Part shown: piece by piece, positions 1,951 to 9,068 of the stretch
How the letters are laid out: each line of letters begins with the position of its first letter
How positions within the stretch are numbered: position 1 is the first letter of the stretch
From: Candidatus Electronema aureum
Lineage (GTDB): Bacteria > Desulfobacterota > Desulfobulbia > Desulfobulbales > Desulfobulbaceae
Direction: 5' to 3'
Length of the DNA: 11,558 nt
NCBI GenBank assembly: GCA_004284765.1
Contig: NQJD01000052.1
Coordinates: 1-11,558, forward strand
Notes under the pieces: generated by a model
Database searches by the model: none
What the model saw: only the letters and a program-made list of their open reading frames with translations
What the model was told of the DNA's origin: nothing
Position numbers and translations under genes: made by a program

Positions 1951-3231
1951 TTAGAAGTTGTAACGTAGTCCGACAAAGGCATTGCTGTTGTCTTGGAAGC
2001 GGCCCCAGAAGGTATGCTCCTCGTCACCAAAAAAGAAATTCAAGCCGCCGTCAAGCTGCCAGTGATCGTTTAGCTTGTACTTGACCTTTGGTCGTACATT
2101 GCCGTCATTGTCCGTGGGCGAGTAATAGGCGAAGAGCGAGAGGGTTAGGTTCTGATTCATCATCAGCTTGGTCAGGCGCAGAGTGAGCAGATGCCGGTAT
2201 TCATCCCGCGTTTTCATGCCGGGCGGCAATGCCTGCTCGTAGTCGTCATAGCCGTCAATCGCCTCAATGTAATACTGCACGCTGCCGGTCAGCTCGTGGC
2301 CGATCTCGCGTTCGAATCCGGCGAGAATGCGGAATTCTGAAGGCCGGACAGCGGGATTGCTGCCGCTTTCGTCATCGGTGGAGTCATAATAGCCGAATTC
2401 GGCATTGCCGATGCCGCCGAACATGGGCGAACGCGCCGACGCGCCATAGACATTGAGCGGCGGATAGACTGCCTTGCCGGAAGCCATGTCCATGCCTTCC
2501 GGCTCCTGCCAGAAGCCGCTGTAGGCGTAGAGGGCCGCTTCGACCTGAGCAAAACTGCGGGAAAGCCGCATGGACAGCTCATCGTCGCGGAACCAGCGGT
2601 CCGGCTCGCTGTCCTCCATGACCATGTCCTGGCCGACAATCCGTCCGGCAGAGGGGTTGTAGTAGGAAAGCCGCTCGCCGTCAATGTACTCCGAGCCTTG
2701 GAAAAGCGGCGCATAGACGAGATCAAGCGAGTAATCGCCGAAAAAAAAGCCGGTCTTGATGACATTGGAAGCCTGCTTCAGGTATTCGTCATCGCGGCCA
2801 ATGAAGAAAGACTGCCAGTCCTTGGGAAACATGTCATTGATGAAGATCATGTCGCCAGTTCCCCAAGTGGAGACCATCCGGCCAATTTTGACATCAGCCC
2901 AATCTGTCGGGCGGAAGGAGACATTCAGCTCGCGGATGTCGGCATCCAGCTCCTCAGTCACTGCGTCAGCGAGCAGGTCGCCTTTAAACTGGACAAGGAA
3001 GGAGTCAAAATCGCGGCTCAGGCGCAGCTGCGTCCGCGCCTCGCCAATGCTCATCGCGTCTTCGTGCTCGTCATCAACGAGCCGCGCTCCGACGCGGGTT
3101 TCAGCGAAACCGAGCAGCTCCACCTCGTACTTGTCATAAAGCCGCTCGGCGAGCGTCTGCTTCTCATCCGCCGCCCAGACAGCAGCCGGGGGCAGGGCGC
3201 AGAGCAGCAGAGCGGCAATTTTTTTCTTCAT
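1951..3231 (-). CDS. Outer-membrane beta-barrel protein associated with the MMPL/LolA-like export cluster
   Basis: Signal peptide 'MKKKIAALLLCALPPAAVWAADE'. The sequence is rich in alternating aromatic/Gly/Asp beta-strand patterns and has a C-terminal 'GLRYNF' with terminal Phe, typical of OM barrels. The ORF track starts at 3237 (MIM...). The ATG at 3231 is better spaced from GAGGA. The gene starts 6-12 nt after the LolA-like stop. Confidence 0.7.
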   Translation of the reverse strand: MKKKIAALLLCALPPAAVWAADEKQTLAERLYDKYEVELLGFAETRVGARLVDDEHEDAMSIGEARTQLRLSRDFDSFLVQFKGDLLADAVTEELDADIRELNVSFRPTDWADVKIGRMVSTWGTGDMIFINDMFPKDWQSFFIGRDDEYLKQASNVIKTGFFFGDYSLDLVYAPLFQGSEYIDGERLSYYNPSAGRIVGQDMVMEDSEPDRWFRDDELSMRLSRSFAQVEAALYAYSGFWQEPEGMDMASGKAVYPPLNVYGASARSPMFGGIGNAEFGYYDSTDDESGSNPAVRPSEFRILAGFEREIGHELTGSVQYYIEAIDGYDDYEQALPPGMKTRDEYRHLLTLRLTKLMMNQNLTLSLFAYYSPTDNDGNVRPKVKYKLNDHWQLDGGLNFFFGDEEHTFWGRFQDNSNAFVGLRYNF

Positions 3232-3243
3232 GATCATCCTCGC

Positions 3244-4026
3244 TTATCTGATTTCACGGGGCGGACGGCGCAGGTAACGCTCGGTGAAGAGGTCTTCGGT
3301 CAGGCCGATGTTGTATTTGACATTGCTGAACTTGGACACGGTTGAGCTGCCTGCGGCGATGTCTGTCACCTTGGATTCCGTCACAGTCGGAATGCCGTCA
3401 ATTATTTCTGTTTTCACCGCCTCGACGATGCGGTATTCCTTGCCGTTTTTGTCGAGATAGACCGCCTTCACCGGCAGAAAGGTCTTTTTGTCAATCTGCA
3501 CGGTGTAGGAGGAGAATTCCACCTCTCCCGGCTTTTTCGGCGTGTTCTTGATCACATAATGCGTGTTTGTGCTTTGCGCCAGCTCGTGGCTGTCTTCAGC
3601 AAGATTGCGACCGGAAACATCCTCGTACATGAAATTGCTGCCGACAAAAGATGTGCGTTTGTCCGAGGCAGCGATGCGCTTGACCAAATCCAAGGCGGGC
3701 AGATACATCCAGCGGTCGTCGTCTTTGTCGGTGTTCTTATGTACCATGAAGACCATTTTGCTGACATCGCTTGGTTTCTTGAAATAAACGTAAAAGAGCT
3801 GCGCCCCGCCGTCCGCCTTGTCCTTGCGCAGGATGACAAATTCCCGCTCCCGCTCGCGTCCTTGGCTGTCCTTGATCGTCATCTTGACCTCAGCACGCCC
3901 GTCATCGCCGCCGTAATAAGCGGCCAAATTGGCCTTGCTGATGATCTCGTCCACGCTGGGATCAGCGGCAAAAGCCGGGGATACAACCAGCAGGGCCAGC
4001 AGACTGAACAGCATTGTTTTTTTCAT
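3244..4026 (-). CDS. LolA-like outer-membrane lipoprotein-sorting protein family (periplasmic)
   Basis: Signal peptide 'MKKTMLFSLLALLVVSPAFAADP'. The motifs 'DEIISKAN', 'WMYLPALDLVKRIAASDKRTSFVGSNFMYEDVSGR' match my recollection of the LolA_like family that accompanies MMPL/RND exporters. AGGAGG (4033-4038 on the plus strand as cctcct) lies 6 nt upstream of the ATG. Confidence 0.85.
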   Translation of the reverse strand: MKKTMLFSLLALLVVSPAFAADPSVDEIISKANLAAYYGGDDGRAEVKMTIKDSQGREREREFVILRKDKADGGAQLFYVYFKKPSDVSKMVFMVHKNTDKDDDRWMYLPALDLVKRIAASDKRTSFVGSNFMYEDVSGRNLAEDSHELAQSTNTHYVIKNTPKKPGEVEFSSYTVQIDKKTFLPVKAVYLDKNGKEYRIVEAVKTEIIDGIPTVTESKVTDIAAGSSTVSKFSNVKYNIGLTEDLFTERYLRRPPREIR

Positions 4027-4050: not shown

Positions 4051-4650
4051 TTAAACATCGCAAATAAACGATTTCAAAATACCGACAATTTTTCTCCCGT
4101 CCTCGAAAGAATAGAGACAGCTGTCAATCGTGACAGTATTTTTCTGAAGCGAAAGGAATTGCCAGAGCACTCCGTCAGTCACCACACCGTAAATCGGCCA
4201 GACTTGATTTCCTTCTTGCTCGTTGAATATCCGCGCCGCCTCCATTTCCGCGACACATTGCGCCAATCCGCTGCCCAAGTCTGATTTCTTAGCCTCCACC
4301 AGCATGACAACCGGCGCGGTGATGTAGAGCTGATTCTCGCTTTTACTGATCAATCCGTCCGGGTTGCCTGTCAGTCCTTTGCCTGCGTCAACGTTGAAGG
4401 TGTTTTGCAGAAAAAAGCTGACAGGCACATGCCGATCAAGCTCCATCAGCACATGATTGACGATCAGAGACTGCCGTCCGCTCTCCGTGTTGATGCGCAC
4501 CGCCTTCGGATAAGCCATGCGCATGGTCTCAATAAACCATTGCGATACTTCCGCAGGCGGAATGTGCGCATAGAGTCCGTCTGCGTCATGAATGCTGATG
4601 CCAAGCTCTTTATGCACTTGATCGAGTGTTTTAAAATCACTGTAGGACAT
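4051..4650 (-). CDS. PD-(D/E)xK nuclease-fold protein, HsdR N-terminal-domain-like (intact paralog)
   Basis: A 199-aa protein. The canonical motif order is 'NPDGLI' (PD), then a hydrophobic strand 'VVMLVEAKK' (ExK), then 'GLAQCVAEM' (Q in the following helix). An upstream 'NTESGRQSLIVNHVLMEL' helix is as in HSDR_N-type domains. It is about one third identical by eye to the decayed gene at 10762-11277. Confidence 0.7.
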   Translation of the reverse strand: MSYSDFKTLDQVHKELGISIHDADGLYAHIPPAEVSQWFIETMRMAYPKAVRINTESGRQSLIVNHVLMELDRHVPVSFFLQNTFNVDAGKGLTGNPDGLISKSENQLYITAPVVMLVEAKKSDLGSGLAQCVAEMEAARIFNEQEGNQVWPIYGVVTDGVLWQFLSLQKNTVTIDSCLYSFEDGRKIVGILKSFICDV

Positions 4651-4678
4651 TCTGTCTCACCCTTCCACCGCATGAATT

Positions 4679-4698
4679 TTTCAGCTTGCAGGCTGAAA
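4679..4698. other. 7-bp hairpin between the repeat array and the nuclease gene start
   Basis: tttcagc (4679-4685), a 6-nt loop, then gctgaaa (4692-4698). No U-tract follows on either strand, so it is not a canonical terminator. Confidence 0.3.
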
Positions 4699-4700
4699 CA

Positions 4701-5070
4701 AGGCCATTCTTTTTCCCTGCGCTCAATTCCTGTTCAAGAATGAGGCTGTCATTTTTTCCATCGGACAGCCCCTCTTAACGAACGCGCCTCCTCTCTTTTA
4801 AAGAGAAAGACTGCTCTTAACGAATGGACTGCTTCATTTTTAAAATTGACATCTCCTCTTTAAAAGAGGGCTTGTCCATTTTTTAAGAGAACGGCTCCAC
4901 TCAAAAAGTGGGGAGGCACTCTTTAAAAACTCACGACCGCTTTTCACGAAAGGGCTGCTCATCTTTTTAAACGGAGACGTTCCTGCAACGAACGGAGAGC
5001 TGCGTTTCAAGGAGGCCGTGGCCTGTCCTTTAAATTTGACCGTGCATTTTTCAATTAAATTATAAATATG
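4701..5070. repeat. Degenerate tandem array, about 8.5 units of 41-45 bp
   Basis: Units start at 4701, 4743, 4785, 4827, 4871, 4914, 4955, 4996 and 5041 (partial). Hand alignment gives unit 4701 vs 4743 at 26/42 identical and 4743 vs 4785 at 24/42, with an identical 11-mer ctcttaacgaa. Each unit has a G/C-rich start (rGCTGyTCA), a T4-6 run, an A-rich stretch, and a 3' block like CCTCTTAACGAAyGG. Confidence 0.75.
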
Positions 5071-5121
5071 TTTACCTTAAGAGGTGTCTATCTTGAAATA
5101 AGTACATAGTATGTGTTGTTT

Positions 5122-6027
5122 TTATGGTATATCAAAAATTACCCCCCAGTTAGATGGCGATCCTGTATATAATATATCACCATCTGTCTCATAATCTTCT
5201 TTTGGTTCCCATGCCCCGAAGAAATCCTCAGTGTGACCTTCAGTCATAATGTGTAAAATGTTAGGAGGCATTGGCCATTTCCTTCTCAAATAATCTAACC
5301 TAGACCAATCTTCATCATCATAAAAGACATTCTTCCCAATCGTAATGCGGCTTAAATCATCGATATATTTAGTTTTGAATTTAAAGTTATTTTTATTGGC
5401 ATTTTTTATTATGGATTTTTCCAAAATTTCAGAGTTAAACTGTCCAAGTTCGACCAGAAGCGTGCAAAGCTCTTTAATATCAAATTCGTTATCCAAACCA
5501 TAATCACCGCTGCTTGGTGCTTTATAAGATATAAGCTCACGACATGCTTTTTTAAAAATGACTTTTTCTTTTAATTCGCTTGACATGTTTTTGTCAAAAT
5601 GGCCAAGATGATCAAAGGTGATATTAATCACCTTTGAATGGTCCATACTAAATAACCGCCCGTCAGCCCAAGGAATATTGGGCAATGTTGCCACAACGCA
5701 ACGGCATGCTGAAAAAATAGCGTAATATTCCAAGTAGGATGTAACAACTCTTAAATTTTTTTCGATAGCGAACTCTAAACTCATAAGTTGAAGAGTAGCC
5801 TGAAATACCATCTTGGCAGAAAAATATATTCTGCATAGCCATTCAGAATTCGTATCTTCTGACCAATCATTGGTAATCTTTGAATATTCTTGAAACATAC
5901 GGGCTGCATTATTCGCGCATATTTTATCATCGAAAACACGAGTTAATTCTCTAAAATTATAAAACCATTTTATTTCTGAAAAACCATGATAAGTTGACAG
6001 TATTTTTCTTGTTGCTATTGAACTCAT
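5122..6027 (-). CDS. AT-rich orphan protein, 301 aa, function unknown (weak HEPN-like features)
   Basis: A long uninterrupted ORF in a region where sampled 60-nt lines are 27% (5341-5400) and 32% (5701-5760) G+C. No clear Shine-Dalgarno precedes the ATG at 6027, so the start is uncertain. The helical segment 'SYLEYYAIFSACRCVVATLP' is followed by 'GRLFSMDH' (R124-x5-H130). Confidence 0.6.
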   Translation of the reverse strand: MSSIATRKILSTYHGFSEIKWFYNFRELTRVFDDKICANNAARMFQEYSKITNDWSEDTNSEWLCRIYFSAKMVFQATLQLMSLEFAIEKNLRVVTSYLEYYAIFSACRCVVATLPNIPWADGRLFSMDHSKVINITFDHLGHFDKNMSSELKEKVIFKKACRELISYKAPSSGDYGLDNEFDIKELCTLLVELGQFNSEILEKSIIKNANKNNFKFKTKYIDDLSRITIGKNVFYDDEDWSRLDYLRRKWPMPPNILHIMTEGHTEDFFGAWEPKEDYETDGDILYTGSPSNWGVIFDIP

Positions 6028-6076
6028 CGCTGTTGTTTGTATAGTTTTTTTTATGGATTTGAATAGTTCACAATAT

Positions 6077-6114
6077 TGTCCCCGACAATATCTAAATGGA
6101 TATTGTCGGGGACA
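6077..6114. repeat. Perfect 16-bp-stem inverted repeat (6-nt loop) at the MMPL stop / AT-rich insert junction
   Basis: tgtccccgacaatatc (6077-6092), loop taaatg, then gatattgtcggggaca (6099-6114), which is the exact reverse complement. ATATTGTC occurs three times: 6073-6080 forward, 6084-6091 reverse, 6100-6107 forward. Confidence 0.85.
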
Positions 6115-6129
6115 CAGCTGCCTGTTGCC

Positions 6130-8748
6130 TCAGCCCTTCTCCGCAAACTCCTTCAGCTCCTTCTTGAACACCCAGCCCTTCATCACCGTCAGCAAGGCGG
6201 GCAAAATCCACAGGGTCGCAAAGCCGGAGTAGAACATAATTGAGGCCAAGAATACGCCCACAGTCTGATACGGCACCAGCGGGGCCAGCAGCAACGGAGT
6301 GAATCCCACCGCTATCACGATGATATTGCGGAGTATTGCCCTTGCTGGCTCATCAAACATGTCGCGGACAGCGGCAGCCCAATCGCCAGTTTTGGCCATC
6401 GTCATCCGAGTACGTTGGAGGAAGTGGATAGCAAAATCAACCGCCAAGCCCAAGGTCAGCGAGGACAGCACTGCTACCGGCATGTCGTAATCCTTGCCGA
6501 TCCAGCCGAGGATGCCGTAAATAAACACGACAGTGAAAGTTAGCGGAATCATCGACAGCAGACCCCATACTACAGAACGGAACATAAACGCCATCATGAT
6601 AAAAACCATGACAAAGCTGGAGAGAAAGGAATTTCTCATGCCTGTTGTCATCTTTGCTTGCCAGATCACGTTAATGTAAGTCAATCCTGCCCATTCATGC
6701 TTTAATTCCACCGGCGGCGGATTTTTTGCAAAATACTGTTCCACGTCGGTAAGCACCCGCTCGGTGTCTTTGTTATCACCGCTTCGCAGCTGAATCCAAA
6801 GATTGGCCTTCGTGTAATCCGGTGTGACTAAATGCCAGAGGTCATCCGGCTTGTGGCTGTTCTGGAAGGAAATTAACGTCTCAGCCACAGCGTTGACTGT
6901 ATCCGGGATAACAAACCGCTGCGGATTACCTTCATACAGCTCCTGATGCACCTTTTTTACTACATCGCTGATGCTGTTGGATTTCCCTACATCGCCCTGT
7001 TTGGCCAAGTGTGCTTGGAAATCGGCGAGATAGCGTAGCATGTCGGGCCGCTTGAAGATTTCCTTGCGGCTGCGAACTTTTTCCAAAGCCTCGATAGCCG
7101 CCGTCCAAAATTGGTAGCCTGCTTCATCTTCTGCCGGAACATTGTCTAACTCACTGTTCCACGCCTCCGCCAAGCTGTCAAGCAGTGCTGCGCCGGGCTG
7201 CCCTGCCGCAGCTTCCTCGGCCACAGCCTTCAGTGCGGTTTCTTTCAAATCACCAGCCAGCAGCTCTAGTTCCTTTTTCAGCAGATCAGCAGCTTCGGCA
7301 GAGGTCAGCTCCTTAGCCTCACCGGAGAGCACAAGATAGGCTTCGTAGGTGCCGCCAAAATGGCTATTCAATACCCGGTCGGCCACGCGGACTTCATGAC
7401 TTTTCTTGAACCACTTCACCGGGTTGTCATTGACCTGAATCATCGAAATACCGATCACACCCACCAGCATAATGCCGATGTTTACGCCGATCACTAACCA
7501 AGGTTTGCCGGATGAAGTTTTACCGATCCAGCGCAAATGCCGGTTCAGCGGTGAGCTTGCATGAGCCGGATGCTCTGCGGATGCACCAAAATTCTCCAGA
7601 CTGCTTTCTGGAATCAACATGACATAAGCCGGAATAAACAGCATAGTCAGCAGCCAAGCCAGCATAATGCCGATACCAACAAAAATACCAAAAGACTGAA
7701 TCGGTGGAATCGGCGTGGTGGCTAAAGAAGCAAAACCAGCTGCCGAGGTCAGCGAGGTAAAAAACATGGAGACAAACAGCTCGCTCATCACGTGCATGAT
7801 GGCTTTCTTTTTGTCTCGGAAACGATGATACGTATCAAAAAATTCAGAAAGAATATGCACCGAATCTGTCACCGCGATCGGCATAATGAAGATCGGGATC
7901 ATCGAACTCATGATGTGCAAGGTATGACCAGTGCCGATCAGCAGACCCATCGTGATGATCACCGAACAAACCGCCAGAATCATCGGTGCAGTGATCAGCT
8001 GCAAATTACGGAAGAAAAAATACATCAGCAGGAAAATCATCAACATGGCCATTGGTGCAGAAATAGCCATCTGAATGAACATTTCCTTGCCAAAGGTGTC
8101 CTCTGCTACCGGCAGACCCGTGATGTGGAATTCATCATCGCCCGCGCCGATCTCTTTAATCTTGGCCCGCAGTCGCTCCGCCACTGTGTGAGCAAAATCT
8201 TTTTTGGTAATCGGTAAATAAATGGCCAGAGCTTTACCGTCCTCCGAAACCATCGTCCCTTTGAGCAGCGGATTCGCCAAAGCTGCGTCGCGAATTTTCA
8301 AAGCCTCTTCGCGGGTAGTCGGCGGTTCCTTCATCAGCCACTCAAAACGTACTTGTCCCAGTCCGGCTTGAATGATGTTATCGACGTTGTCCGGGGCAAT
8401 GATGTCACGGCCAACCACCCGCCGTTCCGCATTGTTAGGGTCAGCCAGCGTGGCCGCGAATTTGCTCAGAGCATGGGCTTTTTTGAGTGTCGCGGGGTTG
8501 AATACGCCGTCAGGATGCTTCTCATTGACCACGCCTACAGCTACCACATCGTGTAGGCCAAATTCCTTCTTGGTCAGGTCATGAAAAACTCGCACTCGTT
8601 CATGCTCTGAAAGCATGTTCTCCGGGTCTGTATCAACATGAACCCGCACGATGAATGCTCCGATGACTAATGTGGCCAAGAGCATGGCGGCAATGACCGC
8701 TTTGGGTTTTTGCAAAGAAAAACCCACCATTATTTCCGCTAACCGCAT
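6130..8748 (-). CDS. MMPL-family / RND-superfamily exporter (COG1033-type, two 6-TM bundles with large periplasmic loops)
   Basis: An 872-aa protein. AGGAGG lies 5 nt upstream of the ATG at 8748. It has an N-terminal TM helix, then a periplasmic domain, then a TM cluster ('MAISAPMAMLMIFLLMYFFFRN...'). A second periplasmic domain and second TM cluster follow ('MVFIMMAFMFRSVVWGLLSMIPL...LGLAVDFAIHF'). This is the typical duplicated MMPL architecture. Confidence 0.85.
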   Translation of the reverse strand: MRLAEIMVGFSLQKPKAVIAAMLLATLVIGAFIVRVHVDTDPENMLSEHERVRVFHDLTKKEFGLHDVVAVGVVNEKHPDGVFNPATLKKAHALSKFAATLADPNNAERRVVGRDIIAPDNVDNIIQAGLGQVRFEWLMKEPPTTREEALKIRDAALANPLLKGTMVSEDGKALAIYLPITKKDFAHTVAERLRAKIKEIGAGDDEFHITGLPVAEDTFGKEMFIQMAISAPMAMLMIFLLMYFFFRNLQLITAPMILAVCSVIITMGLLIGTGHTLHIMSSMIPIFIMPIAVTDSVHILSEFFDTYHRFRDKKKAIMHVMSELFVSMFFTSLTSAAGFASLATTPIPPIQSFGIFVGIGIMLAWLLTMLFIPAYVMLIPESSLENFGASAEHPAHASSPLNRHLRWIGKTSSGKPWLVIGVNIGIMLVGVIGISMIQVNDNPVKWFKKSHEVRVADRVLNSHFGGTYEAYLVLSGEAKELTSAEAADLLKKELELLAGDLKETALKAVAEEAAAGQPGAALLDSLAEAWNSELDNVPAEDEAGYQFWTAAIEALEKVRSRKEIFKRPDMLRYLADFQAHLAKQGDVGKSNSISDVVKKVHQELYEGNPQRFVIPDTVNAVAETLISFQNSHKPDDLWHLVTPDYTKANLWIQLRSGDNKDTERVLTDVEQYFAKNPPPVELKHEWAGLTYINVIWQAKMTTGMRNSFLSSFVMVFIMMAFMFRSVVWGLLSMIPLTFTVVFIYGILGWIGKDYDMPVAVLSSLTLGLAVDFAIHFLQRTRMTMAKTGDWAAAVRDMFDEPARAILRNIIVIAVGFTPLLLAPLVPYQTVGVFLASIMFYSGFATLWILPALLTVMKGWVFKKELKEFAEKG

Positions 8749-8780: not shown

Positions 8781-9068
8781 TCAGGCAATGCCGCAGAAGA
8801 GCTGTTTCATGGTCTTCATCAGCTCGATGATCCTTTTATCTGCAATTCGGTTGTAGATGAAATTGGCTTCTTTACGGGAAGCGACAAGACCTTGATTACG
8901 CATAATATTGAGATGCTGACTGATGTTTGCACCGCTGGTCTCCAAGCTCTCCCGGATTTCACTCACTGACAGCTCCTGATGTTGGAGCAGGCAGAGGATT
9001 TGCAGCCGGATGGGATGGGATATTGATTTGAGCAGTAAGGCTAACTCGTTGACTTCTTTATCCGCCAT
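8781..9068 (-). CDS. ArsR/SmtB-family winged-helix transcriptional regulator
   Basis: A 95-aa protein. 'LKSISHPIRLQILCLLQHQELSVSEIRESLETSGANISQHLNIMRNQGLVASRKEANFIYNRI' is the classic ArsR HTH core. The ELCVCD-type metal site is absent, with only a single Cys in 'ILCLL'. GGAGA lies 5 nt upstream of the ATG. The gene ends 32 nt upstream of the MMPL gene. Confidence 0.85.
   Translation of the reverse strand: MADKEVNELALLLKSISHPIRLQILCLLQHQELSVSEIRESLETSGANISQHLNIMRNQGLVASRKEANFIYNRIADKRIIELMKTMKQLFCGIA

Follow-up and report, generated by a model that had tools for sequence, protein, structure and literature searches.

An 11,558-nucleotide stretch of the genome of Candidatus Electronema aureum (contig NQJD01000052.1, analyzed whole and called the window here) carries a run of weakly similar tandem repeats at 4701-5070, between the gene of an MMPL-type transporter and that of a LolA-like protein, on whose common strand (minus) the repeats lie upstream of a 199-amino-acid (aa) nuclease-like gene. 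What is this array: a repeat RNA belonging to the nuclease-like gene, a set of protein-binding sites or curved DNA, or the remains of a coding repeat? These three readings came from an initial annotation, which described about 8.5 units of 41 to 45 nt. The array is a real, non-coding, locus-specific, strictly phased 21-bp minisatellite. In an autocorrelation of 4701-5070, self-similarity peaks at lags 42, 84, 126, 168 and 210 (0.485, 0.479, 0.471, 0.465, and 0.425), with a sub-period of 21 nt visible at lags 21, 63, and 105 (0.40 to 0.44); at no lag did the value exceed 0.351 among 500 mononucleotide shuffles, or 0.390 among 300 first-order Markov sequences, which bears out the claim of an above-chance periodicity. 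The peaks stand at exact multiples of 42 and drop steeply at one position to either side, indicating that there is no phase drift. Dynamic-programming segmentation, with permitted spacings of 19 to 24 nt, gave a spacing of 21 nt for all 14 units, the first starting at 5016 and the last at 4743 on the minus strand; two orthologous loci, L001 and L003, likewise show no spacing other than 21 nt. The core array (4723-5016, minus strand), delimited by autocorrelation, segmentation, and an nhmmer profile, is made of 14 degenerate 21-nt units in strict register, or 7 super-units of 42 nt; the variable lengths of 41 to 45 nt, and with them the count of about 8.5, were an artefact of alignment by eye.

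On the minus strand, which is the gene strand, the units have the consensus CCnTTYnTnAARAGnAGCnGY, whose quasi-palindromic core, of the CCTCTTTTAAAGAGG type, is centered on the junction between a T-run and an A-run. Such a pair of runs is found in every unit, as had been noted, and the block CTCTTAACGAA (4772-4782 and 4814-4824) and the small palindromes at 4855-4869 and 4897-4911 are also present as described. Two flavours of unit, the TTCGTTAAGAG type and the TTTAAAAGAG type, alternate along the array, and this alternation accounts for the 42-nt super-period. The units resemble each other less than the 57 to 62% estimated for neighbors by hand: the mean pairwise identity is 52% for 42-mers and 46% for 21-mers, and adjacent 42-mers match at 17 to 25 of 42 positions, which explains why Tandem Repeats Finder (minimum score of 30) did not detect an array at 4701-5070. 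Only positions 2, 5, 8, 10, 11, 14, and 16 of the unit are at least 79% conserved (8, 10, and 16 as the base classes W, R, and R), and the dyad-symmetric positions C2/G14 and T5/A11 are conserved at 79 to 92%. The nhmmer profile of the array matches its own reverse complement, with E values down to 4e-15, and this match on both strands shows the array to be dyad-symmetric. Heptamer repeats of the kind known from Beggiatoaceae (TAACTGA; PMC4679880) were considered and rejected, lags 7 and 14 lying below the autocorrelation reporting cut-off of 0.33.

The array is bounded on both sides by recognizable sequence. A conserved leader (cttgcgggaaaaacgcacggcccaatg...) precedes it in all orthologs, and alignments place a remnant of this leader at 5017-5051 (minus strand) in the window, where its 5' end is displaced by inserted AT-rich DNA. 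The tail (4651-4722, minus strand) consists of a last degenerate unit (gcgcagggaaaaagaatggcc), a hairpin with a 7-bp stem at 4679-4698 that agrees with its first description, and a purine-rich ribosome-binding region, followed by the ATG of the nuclease-like gene at 4650. In this array-to-gene interval, no T-tract follows the hairpin and a terminator scan made no call; scanning and inspection of the tail for sigma-70 and sigma-54 promoters gave weak, non-conserved matches only.

Does the array belong to the gene that follows it? The label "nuclease-like" is fair, for the 199-aa protein (4051-4650, minus strand) matches the PADLOC model PD_DExK at 6.9e-44; nothing matched it in Pfam, NCBIfam, or PHROGs, and no PDB sequence did so significantly. 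Type III toxin-antitoxin loci (ToxIN, CptIN, and TenpIN) combine near-identical tandem repeats of about 34 to 45 nt, a terminator, and an endoribonuclease (ToxN/AbiQ, CptN, or TenpN), and the arrangement in the window, with tandem repeats immediately upstream of a small gene on the same strand and a hairpin in between, had suggested an antitoxin role for the repeats, whose RNA would be processed into units that neutralize the 199-aa protein. The family of this protein comprises 833 homologs in several phyla, typically 65 to 78% identical, and 51 genomic loci encoding it were examined for nearby arrays. A 21/42-nt array was found near the gene at the 4 closest loci only, all of the Electronema clade, whereas about 45 other homolog loci have none. 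The array, for its part, is conserved at the level of single units across seven genomes of the Electronema clade, in the spacer that separates the MMPL gene from its LolA-like partner, with varying neighbors. It comes directly after the MMPL gene in L002, L003, and L142; the order in L002 and L142 is MMPL gene, hairpin, leader, array, and PD-DExK gene, and in L003 a DUF4160/DUF2442 pair and a 334-aa gene come next after the array, while the PD-DExK gene lies 1.5 kb further on without an array of its own. In L141, the array has an RNase H gene on one side and a 181-aa gene on the other, and in L140 it is flanked by genes for an nSTAND NTPase and an RNase H; L143 has a PD-DExK gene 93% identical to that of the window and no array. 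In the window and in L001, different AT-rich genes have been inserted between the MMPL gene and the array. Judged by these genomes, the array is a landmark of the MMPL-LolA spacer, with cargo genes that come and go on both sides, and the PD-DExK gene is itself cargo, independent of the array and not functionally tied to it; the reported adjacency of array and gene is real in this window and does not extend across genomes as a conserved relationship. The uncoupling of the two, seen in L003, L140, L141, L143, and the roughly 45 further loci, refutes the type III reading, to which we give almost no credence. The other features of a type III locus fail as well, since the units are only about 50% identical, PD-DExK is not a type III toxin family, the hairpin lacks a U-tract, and similar arrays precede housekeeping genes such as acpP. 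The idea of a type III-like pair whose toxin is of the PD-(D/E)xK kind fails, and a wrong annotation is thereby avoided.

At 80 more distant orthologous loci, where the LolA-like protein is 53 to 83% identical, no array was found, and the MMPL-LolA spacer of distant relatives with an adjacent MMPL gene measures only about 10 to 60 nt. The comparison of seven genomes dates the change of a 10- to 60-nt operon spacer into a cargo island with a phased array. The exact two-turn spacing, the symmetry of both strands, and the conservation of the symmetric positions point to action as double-stranded DNA, and we tentatively favor, with somewhat less than even confidence, the reading that the array is a series of phased dyad sites for cooperative protein binding. 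The ancestral spacer of 10 to 60 nt has turned into an island with foreign genes on either side of the array. The array itself may have arisen when a short palindromic element of the spacer was amplified in tandem, and it may have been kept for its spacing and dyad core, not for its overall sequence. Each unit is a degenerate dyad with an AT-rich center (C-N2-T...A-N2-G), and dyads spaced two helical turns apart would lie on one face of the helix, where a dimeric or shape-reading protein (nucleoid-associated or regulatory) could bind them cooperatively and so set expression or topology across the interrupted operon.

The proposal of iteron-like sites or curved DNA is thus retained in its first half, phased binding sites being the mechanism we prefer, and lost in its second. 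In a dinucleotide wedge model (Bolshoy parameters), in which the controls A4T4N2 and T4A4N2 gave 0.16 (curved) and 0.997 (straight), the ratio of end-to-end to contour length was 0.918 for the array and 0.90 ± 0.07 for shuffles, and the array took rank 61 among 113 window segments, indistinguishable from shuffles and from other segments of the window. Its tracts follow the TnAn pattern, the straight one of the two, and intrinsic curvature is at best very improbable.

The array has taken at least 158 substitutions among five full-length orthologs, with one 21-nt deletion and no smaller indel, whereas 3 small indels accompany approximately 79 substitutions in the leader and tail that flank it, a contrast based on few events; its many homopolymer runs should have favored slippage by one nucleotide. 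L003 has one extra 21-nt unit at the boundary of array and tail, and one or two insertions of 1 nt are seen in L002 and L142. Divergence between orthologs is lower at consensus positions than elsewhere (0.147 versus 0.191, permutation P = 0.02), with positions 5, 6, 11, and 14 evolving most slowly; between the window and L001, divergence is 0.14 in the array versus 0.27 to 0.47 at four-fold degenerate sites; and about 300 bp of array have been retained in the seven genomes at synonymous divergence of up to about 0.47. Unit number ranges from 9 to 15 across genomes by segmentation. The evidence for constraint on register and dyad core is mixed and leans towards yes, and the overall sequence of the array is, on the same alignments, not protected.

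Strict phase, the lack of small indels, slower consensus positions, and a conserved place count for phased dyad sites, as does the same architecture in the fabG-acpP, ribD-M16, and fabH-acd spacers described below. Several observations weigh against them. L002 and L003 differ by 0.36 in the array versus 0.14 to 0.20 at four-fold sites, so that any sequence constraint is weak, and the indel contrast is subject to the small number of events noted above. The array is dispensable, being missing from L143, and the fabG-acpP array is likewise missing from E. aureum, E. halotolerans, and Electrothrix. No candidate binding protein was found, and no rep, par, or regulator gene covaries with the array; the unit sequence differs from one array to the next, which argues against one sequence-specific protein; and the 12 compensatory changes in dyad pairs (see below), which are unit-specific, fit hairpins or quasi-palindrome template switching better than simple half-site recognition. 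Much of this would also be expected of a neutral relic, in which lineage-specific slippage or template switching amplifies palindromic spacer elements and the arrays then decay, a degenerate array being stable and tolerated in an untranslated spacer. Close relatives without arrays, the range of unit numbers, the divergence of L002 and L003 at or above the synonymous rate, and the private unit sequence of each locus all suit such a relic, and template switching could yield compensatory changes without selection. A relic does not, however, explain why phase-breaking indels are absent despite the many homopolymer runs, why consensus positions evolve more slowly, why some 300 bp persist in seven genomes at that synonymous divergence, or why the register is equally strict in the other 21-nt arrays; we regard it as possible, though rather unlikely.

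The dyads could also act in RNA. The array would then be a string of unit hairpins in a polycistronic MMPL-LolA mRNA, tuning processing, 3'-to-5' decay, or translation in the manner of REP/BIME elements. The flanking genes are co-directional, and the terminator scan made no call between them; spacers of co-directional genes hold all four array types, and the fabG-acpP array abuts the upstream stop codon. Folds of the whole array by minimum free energy surpass shuffles only moderately and are uninformative, owing to long-range pairing between units and similar z-scores on both strands (-2.7 on each strand in the window; -3.3 sense and -5.2 antisense in L003). RNAalifold on seven orthologs gave a covariation term of only -0.11 kcal/mol, close to zero, and fixed columns within the 21-mer gave no clean signal, because the hairpin register differs between units. 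When one 5-bp hairpin per unit was imposed at the consensus dyad, in contrast, 65.4% of cells were paired versus 62.2 ± 0.7 in shuffles, and the covariation score was 0.169 versus 0.125 ± 0.011, with 12 pairs altered on both sides; the true register was the best of seven slid registers by every measure. About one-third of the units form good hairpins, and three compensatory pairs distinguish the first hairpin of L001 from that of L002. By these measures, the dyads are real and partly maintained, and the sense RNA is not singled out. Six of the 14 units pair poorly (34 to 57% paired), and several, at 34 to 49%, are unable to pair; neither fold z-scores nor wobble usage shows a preference for the sense strand (27 wobble pairs of the sense type versus 22 of the antisense type in a tally of the unit table); a string of hairpins does not require an exact 21-nt register; and Rfam returned no match to the array at E ≤ 1. 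Quasi-palindrome template switching could, moreover, mimic compensatory change. An RNA element appears unlikely to us, although less so than the readings that tie the array to a protein product or to guide RNAs. A sponge for CsrA (GGA) or Hfq (ARN) was also considered and rejected, GGA occurring in about half of the units and in none of the other arrays.

The coding reading, in which the array is a decayed or cryptic repeat of SPFxKxx-type heptads, gained one point from the corrected period: 21 nt are seven codons, all spacings are 21 nt, and there are no frameshifting indels, so the earlier objection that unit lengths break the frame was wrong. A 78-codon stop-free stretch is indeed present in the window. 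However, stops fall in all six frames in the window, L001, L002, and L003, 1 to 9 in each and at differing positions; the ATG at 4962, which starts a 40-codon open reading frame (ORF), is AGG in L141, so that the ORF is not conserved; relatives lack any such gene, their MMPL and LolA genes abutting; and in the fabH-acd spacer the sister array repeats every 23 nt. The heptad pattern is simply how a translated 21-nt repeat looks, and a coding origin is very doubtful.

An array of two alternating blocks also recalls guide-RNA arrays of the TIGR or CRISPR type. In TIGR arrays, two semi-conserved blocks alternate, and variable segments of about 9 to 10 nt separate them (PMC12045711; TIGRFinder preprint, bioRxiv 10.64898/2026.09.09.750476). 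The likeness lies in the alternation of short blocks with short variable segments (A-type and B-type halves in a 42-nt unit, a dual-repeat geometry), in the number of units (5 to 15), and in weak overall sequence conservation, and the PD-DExK family is labelled CRISPR-associated in PADLOC. Unlike in TIGR arrays, there is no box C or box D at a fixed phase: a box C-N9-box D arrangement occurs in at most 12.5% of units in sense and 14% in antisense, and the 3 to 4 box hits per strand compare with about 2.3 to 2.4 expected from base composition. There is no Tas protein and no Nop-domain protein in the window; the 301-aa protein encoded next to the array has no Tas-like or Nop-like fold, and the neighbors in other genomes are unrelated to it. 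The would-be spacers are conserved unit by unit across species, the would-be repeats are not conserved within the array, and we find a guide array barely conceivable.

Is this array the only one of its kind? A scan for degenerate periodicity covered 918 kb of collected sequence, a small sample partly biased by the choice of loci. Within it, the nhmmer profile of the MMPL-LolA array found the orthologous locus only, while further arrays of unrelated unit sequence were concentrated in Electronema; about 830 kb of non-Electronema sequence held only about 4 arrays of any period. The spacer between fabG and acpP carries 16 units of 21 nt (approximately CGCAGCGTGAAATGAGGCATT) in Electronema sp. JC, V4, and a JGI contig (L022, 5650-6000; L132, 9640-9960; L133, 1700-2040), beginning directly after the upstream stop codon; the corresponding spacers of E. 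aureum, E. halotolerans, and Electrothrix, which lack this array, are 76 to 112 nt long. The spacer between fabH and acd (acyl-CoA dehydrogenase) has a 23-nt array with a palindromic TCATGnnCATGA core (L132, 4711-5011; L134, 4070-4225), some units of which are inverted in L132, and the spacer between ribD and an M16 peptidase gene has 10 units of 21 nt (approximately CGCATGTGAGGCCGNATCTGC; L132, 15760-15970). Gene clusters enclose the fabG-acpP, fabH-acd, and MMPL-LolA spacers, and the ribD-M16 spacer separates co-directional genes; both other 21-nt arrays are in strict register, and all three additional arrays contain internal palindromes. Membership of the fabG-acpP array in the same family as the MMPL-LolA array was rejected by position weight matrix and nhmmer alike, and motifs that seemed shared by eye (GTGAAAC and GCGCAGGGA) are within chance.

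Degenerate 21- to 23-nt arrays within operons look like a lineage-wide habit of Electronema, as far as these loci can tell, with a density of about 1 per 20 kb in the little Electronema sequence sampled. A bolder proposal, which we think improbable but worth stating, is that they form an undescribed class of elements in Ca. Electronema, which are freshwater cable bacteria: arrays of 10 to 16 degenerate units, each with an internal palindrome and all in an exact register of 21 to 23 bp, that would have been built independently and from different sequences in many co-directional spacers. Their shared period would come from a lineage-specific machine, and they would regulate or insulate operon genes. 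Such a machine might be a DNA-binding or chromatin-like protein with a two-turn footprint, or a mechanism that adds or copies units, as opposed to chance slippage. The hint that these genomes make such arrays repeatedly has a practical side, since the arrays mislead gene callers: the called M16 peptidase ORF starts inside the ribD-M16 array and absorbs it, whereas translation probably begins at the ATG near 15994, right ahead of a signal-peptide-like sequence.

Three known kinds of repeat come closest. Mycobacterial interspersed repetitive units (MIRUs) are one dispersed family of about 40 loci, with a 46- to 101-bp unit, near-identical copies in strain-variable number, and small ORFs overlapping the neighboring stop and start codons; they reportedly go back to work by Supply et al. 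in 1997. The present array shares with them short tandem repeats in the spacers of co-directional operon genes and differs in its 21-bp unit, its identity of about 46 to 52%, its confinement to one locus in 918 kb, and its closed reading frames. REP/BIME elements of enterobacteria are clusters of imperfect palindromes, located in transcribed intercistronic spacers, for which gyrase and IHF binding and effects on mRNA stability have been reported; REPs are a genome-wide family of about 35 nt in alternating orientation, mobilized by RAYT transposases. Clusters of short imperfect palindromes in intercistronic spacers are common to both, whereas here the repeats are direct, in exact 21-bp phase, and of locus-specific sequence. 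F sopC has twelve 43-bp repeats, each with an inverted repeat, parC is likewise a centromere array, and such plasmid iteron and centromere units, the model for cooperative binding of a protein, are near-identical and lie beside rep or par genes. Helically phased direct repeats with internal dyads and a period close to whole helical turns are found here too (21 bp, 14 times), but the array is chromosomal, intra-operon, and degenerate (about 46% identical), and no cognate Rep or Par gene is among the window ORFs. The array lacks some defining features of each of the three, and no description of these arrays was found in the searchable literature on cable bacteria and bacterial repeats. Cable bacteria have no pure culture yet and no genetic system, which leaves sequence-encoded regulatory features among the few options for study; if the constraint on register is true, the arrays would provide a handle on nucleoid or operon organization in these organisms.

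The MMPL-LolA spacer is in several genomes a hypervariable cargo island (4051-6129 in the window; L003, 1000-3000; L140, 2240-4000; L141, 880-5200). Its cargo, co-directional with the operon, includes RNase H, DUF4160/DUF2442 pairs, an nSTAND NTPase, a 331- to 334-aa protein, PD-DExK, and AT-rich orphans. In L140, a second partial copy of the leader with the first units follows the RNase H gene (3279-3364), and this presence of the leader on both sides of the cargo hints at recombination at the leader. Among viral contigs, a spaced TTCGTTAAGAG pair had no match; two matches to a leader 18-mer were dismissed as chance, nhmmer showing no array there. A second insertion hotspot of cable bacteria lies between two ETF subunit genes of a fab/ETF cluster (L132, 6912-7697; L134, 6146-7906; L136, 6766-7959; L138, 6705-7639; L139, 6877-7924), where the cargo is, depending on the genome, HicA, MazE/PIN, AbiJ, an Mrr-like nuclease, or a vWA protein.

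The hosts of the 199-aa family include Desulfobulbaceae, Beggiatoaceae, Achromatium, Thiosymbion, Competibacteraceae, Moduliflexus, and a Prochlorothrix metagenome-assembled genome (MAG) (L004-L049), and the gene is multicopy within single MAGs (for instance, L009/L021/L035 and L015/L020/L027/L039). From this distribution, the family looks like a horizontally mobile selfish or defence gene. Upstream of one paralog, in a Parabeggiatoa MAG (L009, 2311-2478), there are 4 near-exact 42-nt repeats (AAAATTTGGTGTTTGTAGGGGCGAACCTACGTGTTCGCCCAT, 98% matches), unrelated in sequence to the array of the window.

All genes of the series around the array are on the minus strand, in the order ArsR-type regulator, MMPL, 301-aa orphan, array, 199-aa gene, LolA-like gene, and 428-aa gene. 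The ArsR-type regulator (8781-9068) is the sole DNA-binding protein among the window ORFs by Pfam; L054 has a 104-aa ORF at the equivalent position. The MMPL/HAE3-type RND transporter gene (6130-8748; Pfam MMPL, 1.4e-40) is the upstream anchor of the array spacer. Directly 3' of its stop codon is a perfect hairpin with a 16-bp stem (TGTCCCCGACAATATC / GATATTGTCGGGGACA, 6077-6114), and a different hairpin, with a 13-bp stem, occupies the same site in L002, L003, and L142. The 301-aa orphan gene (5122-6027) lies between the MMPL gene and the array; with a GC content of about 35% in surroundings of about 50%, and absent from orthologous loci, it is foreign cargo. Its product has no match in Pfam, NCBIfam, PADLOC, or PHROGs, and its homologs, hypothetical proteins about 296 aa long, occur here and there among Proteobacteria, cyanobacteria, and Campylobacterota. 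AlphaFold2 gave a confident, all-helical model (predicted local distance difference test score of 86), with no PDB match by sequence or by fold; a role as a Tas-like, Nop-like, or DNA-binding partner was accordingly rejected, there being no fold match and only a family of hypothetical proteins. This gene is flanked exactly by a 15-nt direct repeat (TGTTGTTTTTATGGT / TGTTGTTTGTATAGT, 13 of 15 identical) at 5114-5128 and 6031-6045, which could be an insertion footprint or chance in AT-rich DNA.

Downstream, the anchor is the LolA-like gene (3244-4026; TP_0789-like/DUF1329-related; Pfam LolA_like, 1.9e-51), and the 428-aa gene (1951-3237), with a weak DUF1302-like match, is the last conserved member of the operon, its gene order being kept in L001 to L003, L140, L143, and L144. 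The last of these has the gene order of the window and holds the reverse complement of a 60-nt stretch of it, the window being part of the closed chromosome of Ca. Electronema aureum GS (OW818638.1). Beyond the operon, a tRNA gene (Rfam RF00005, 59.6 bits), the only Rfam match obtained, lies on the plus strand at 1408-1478.

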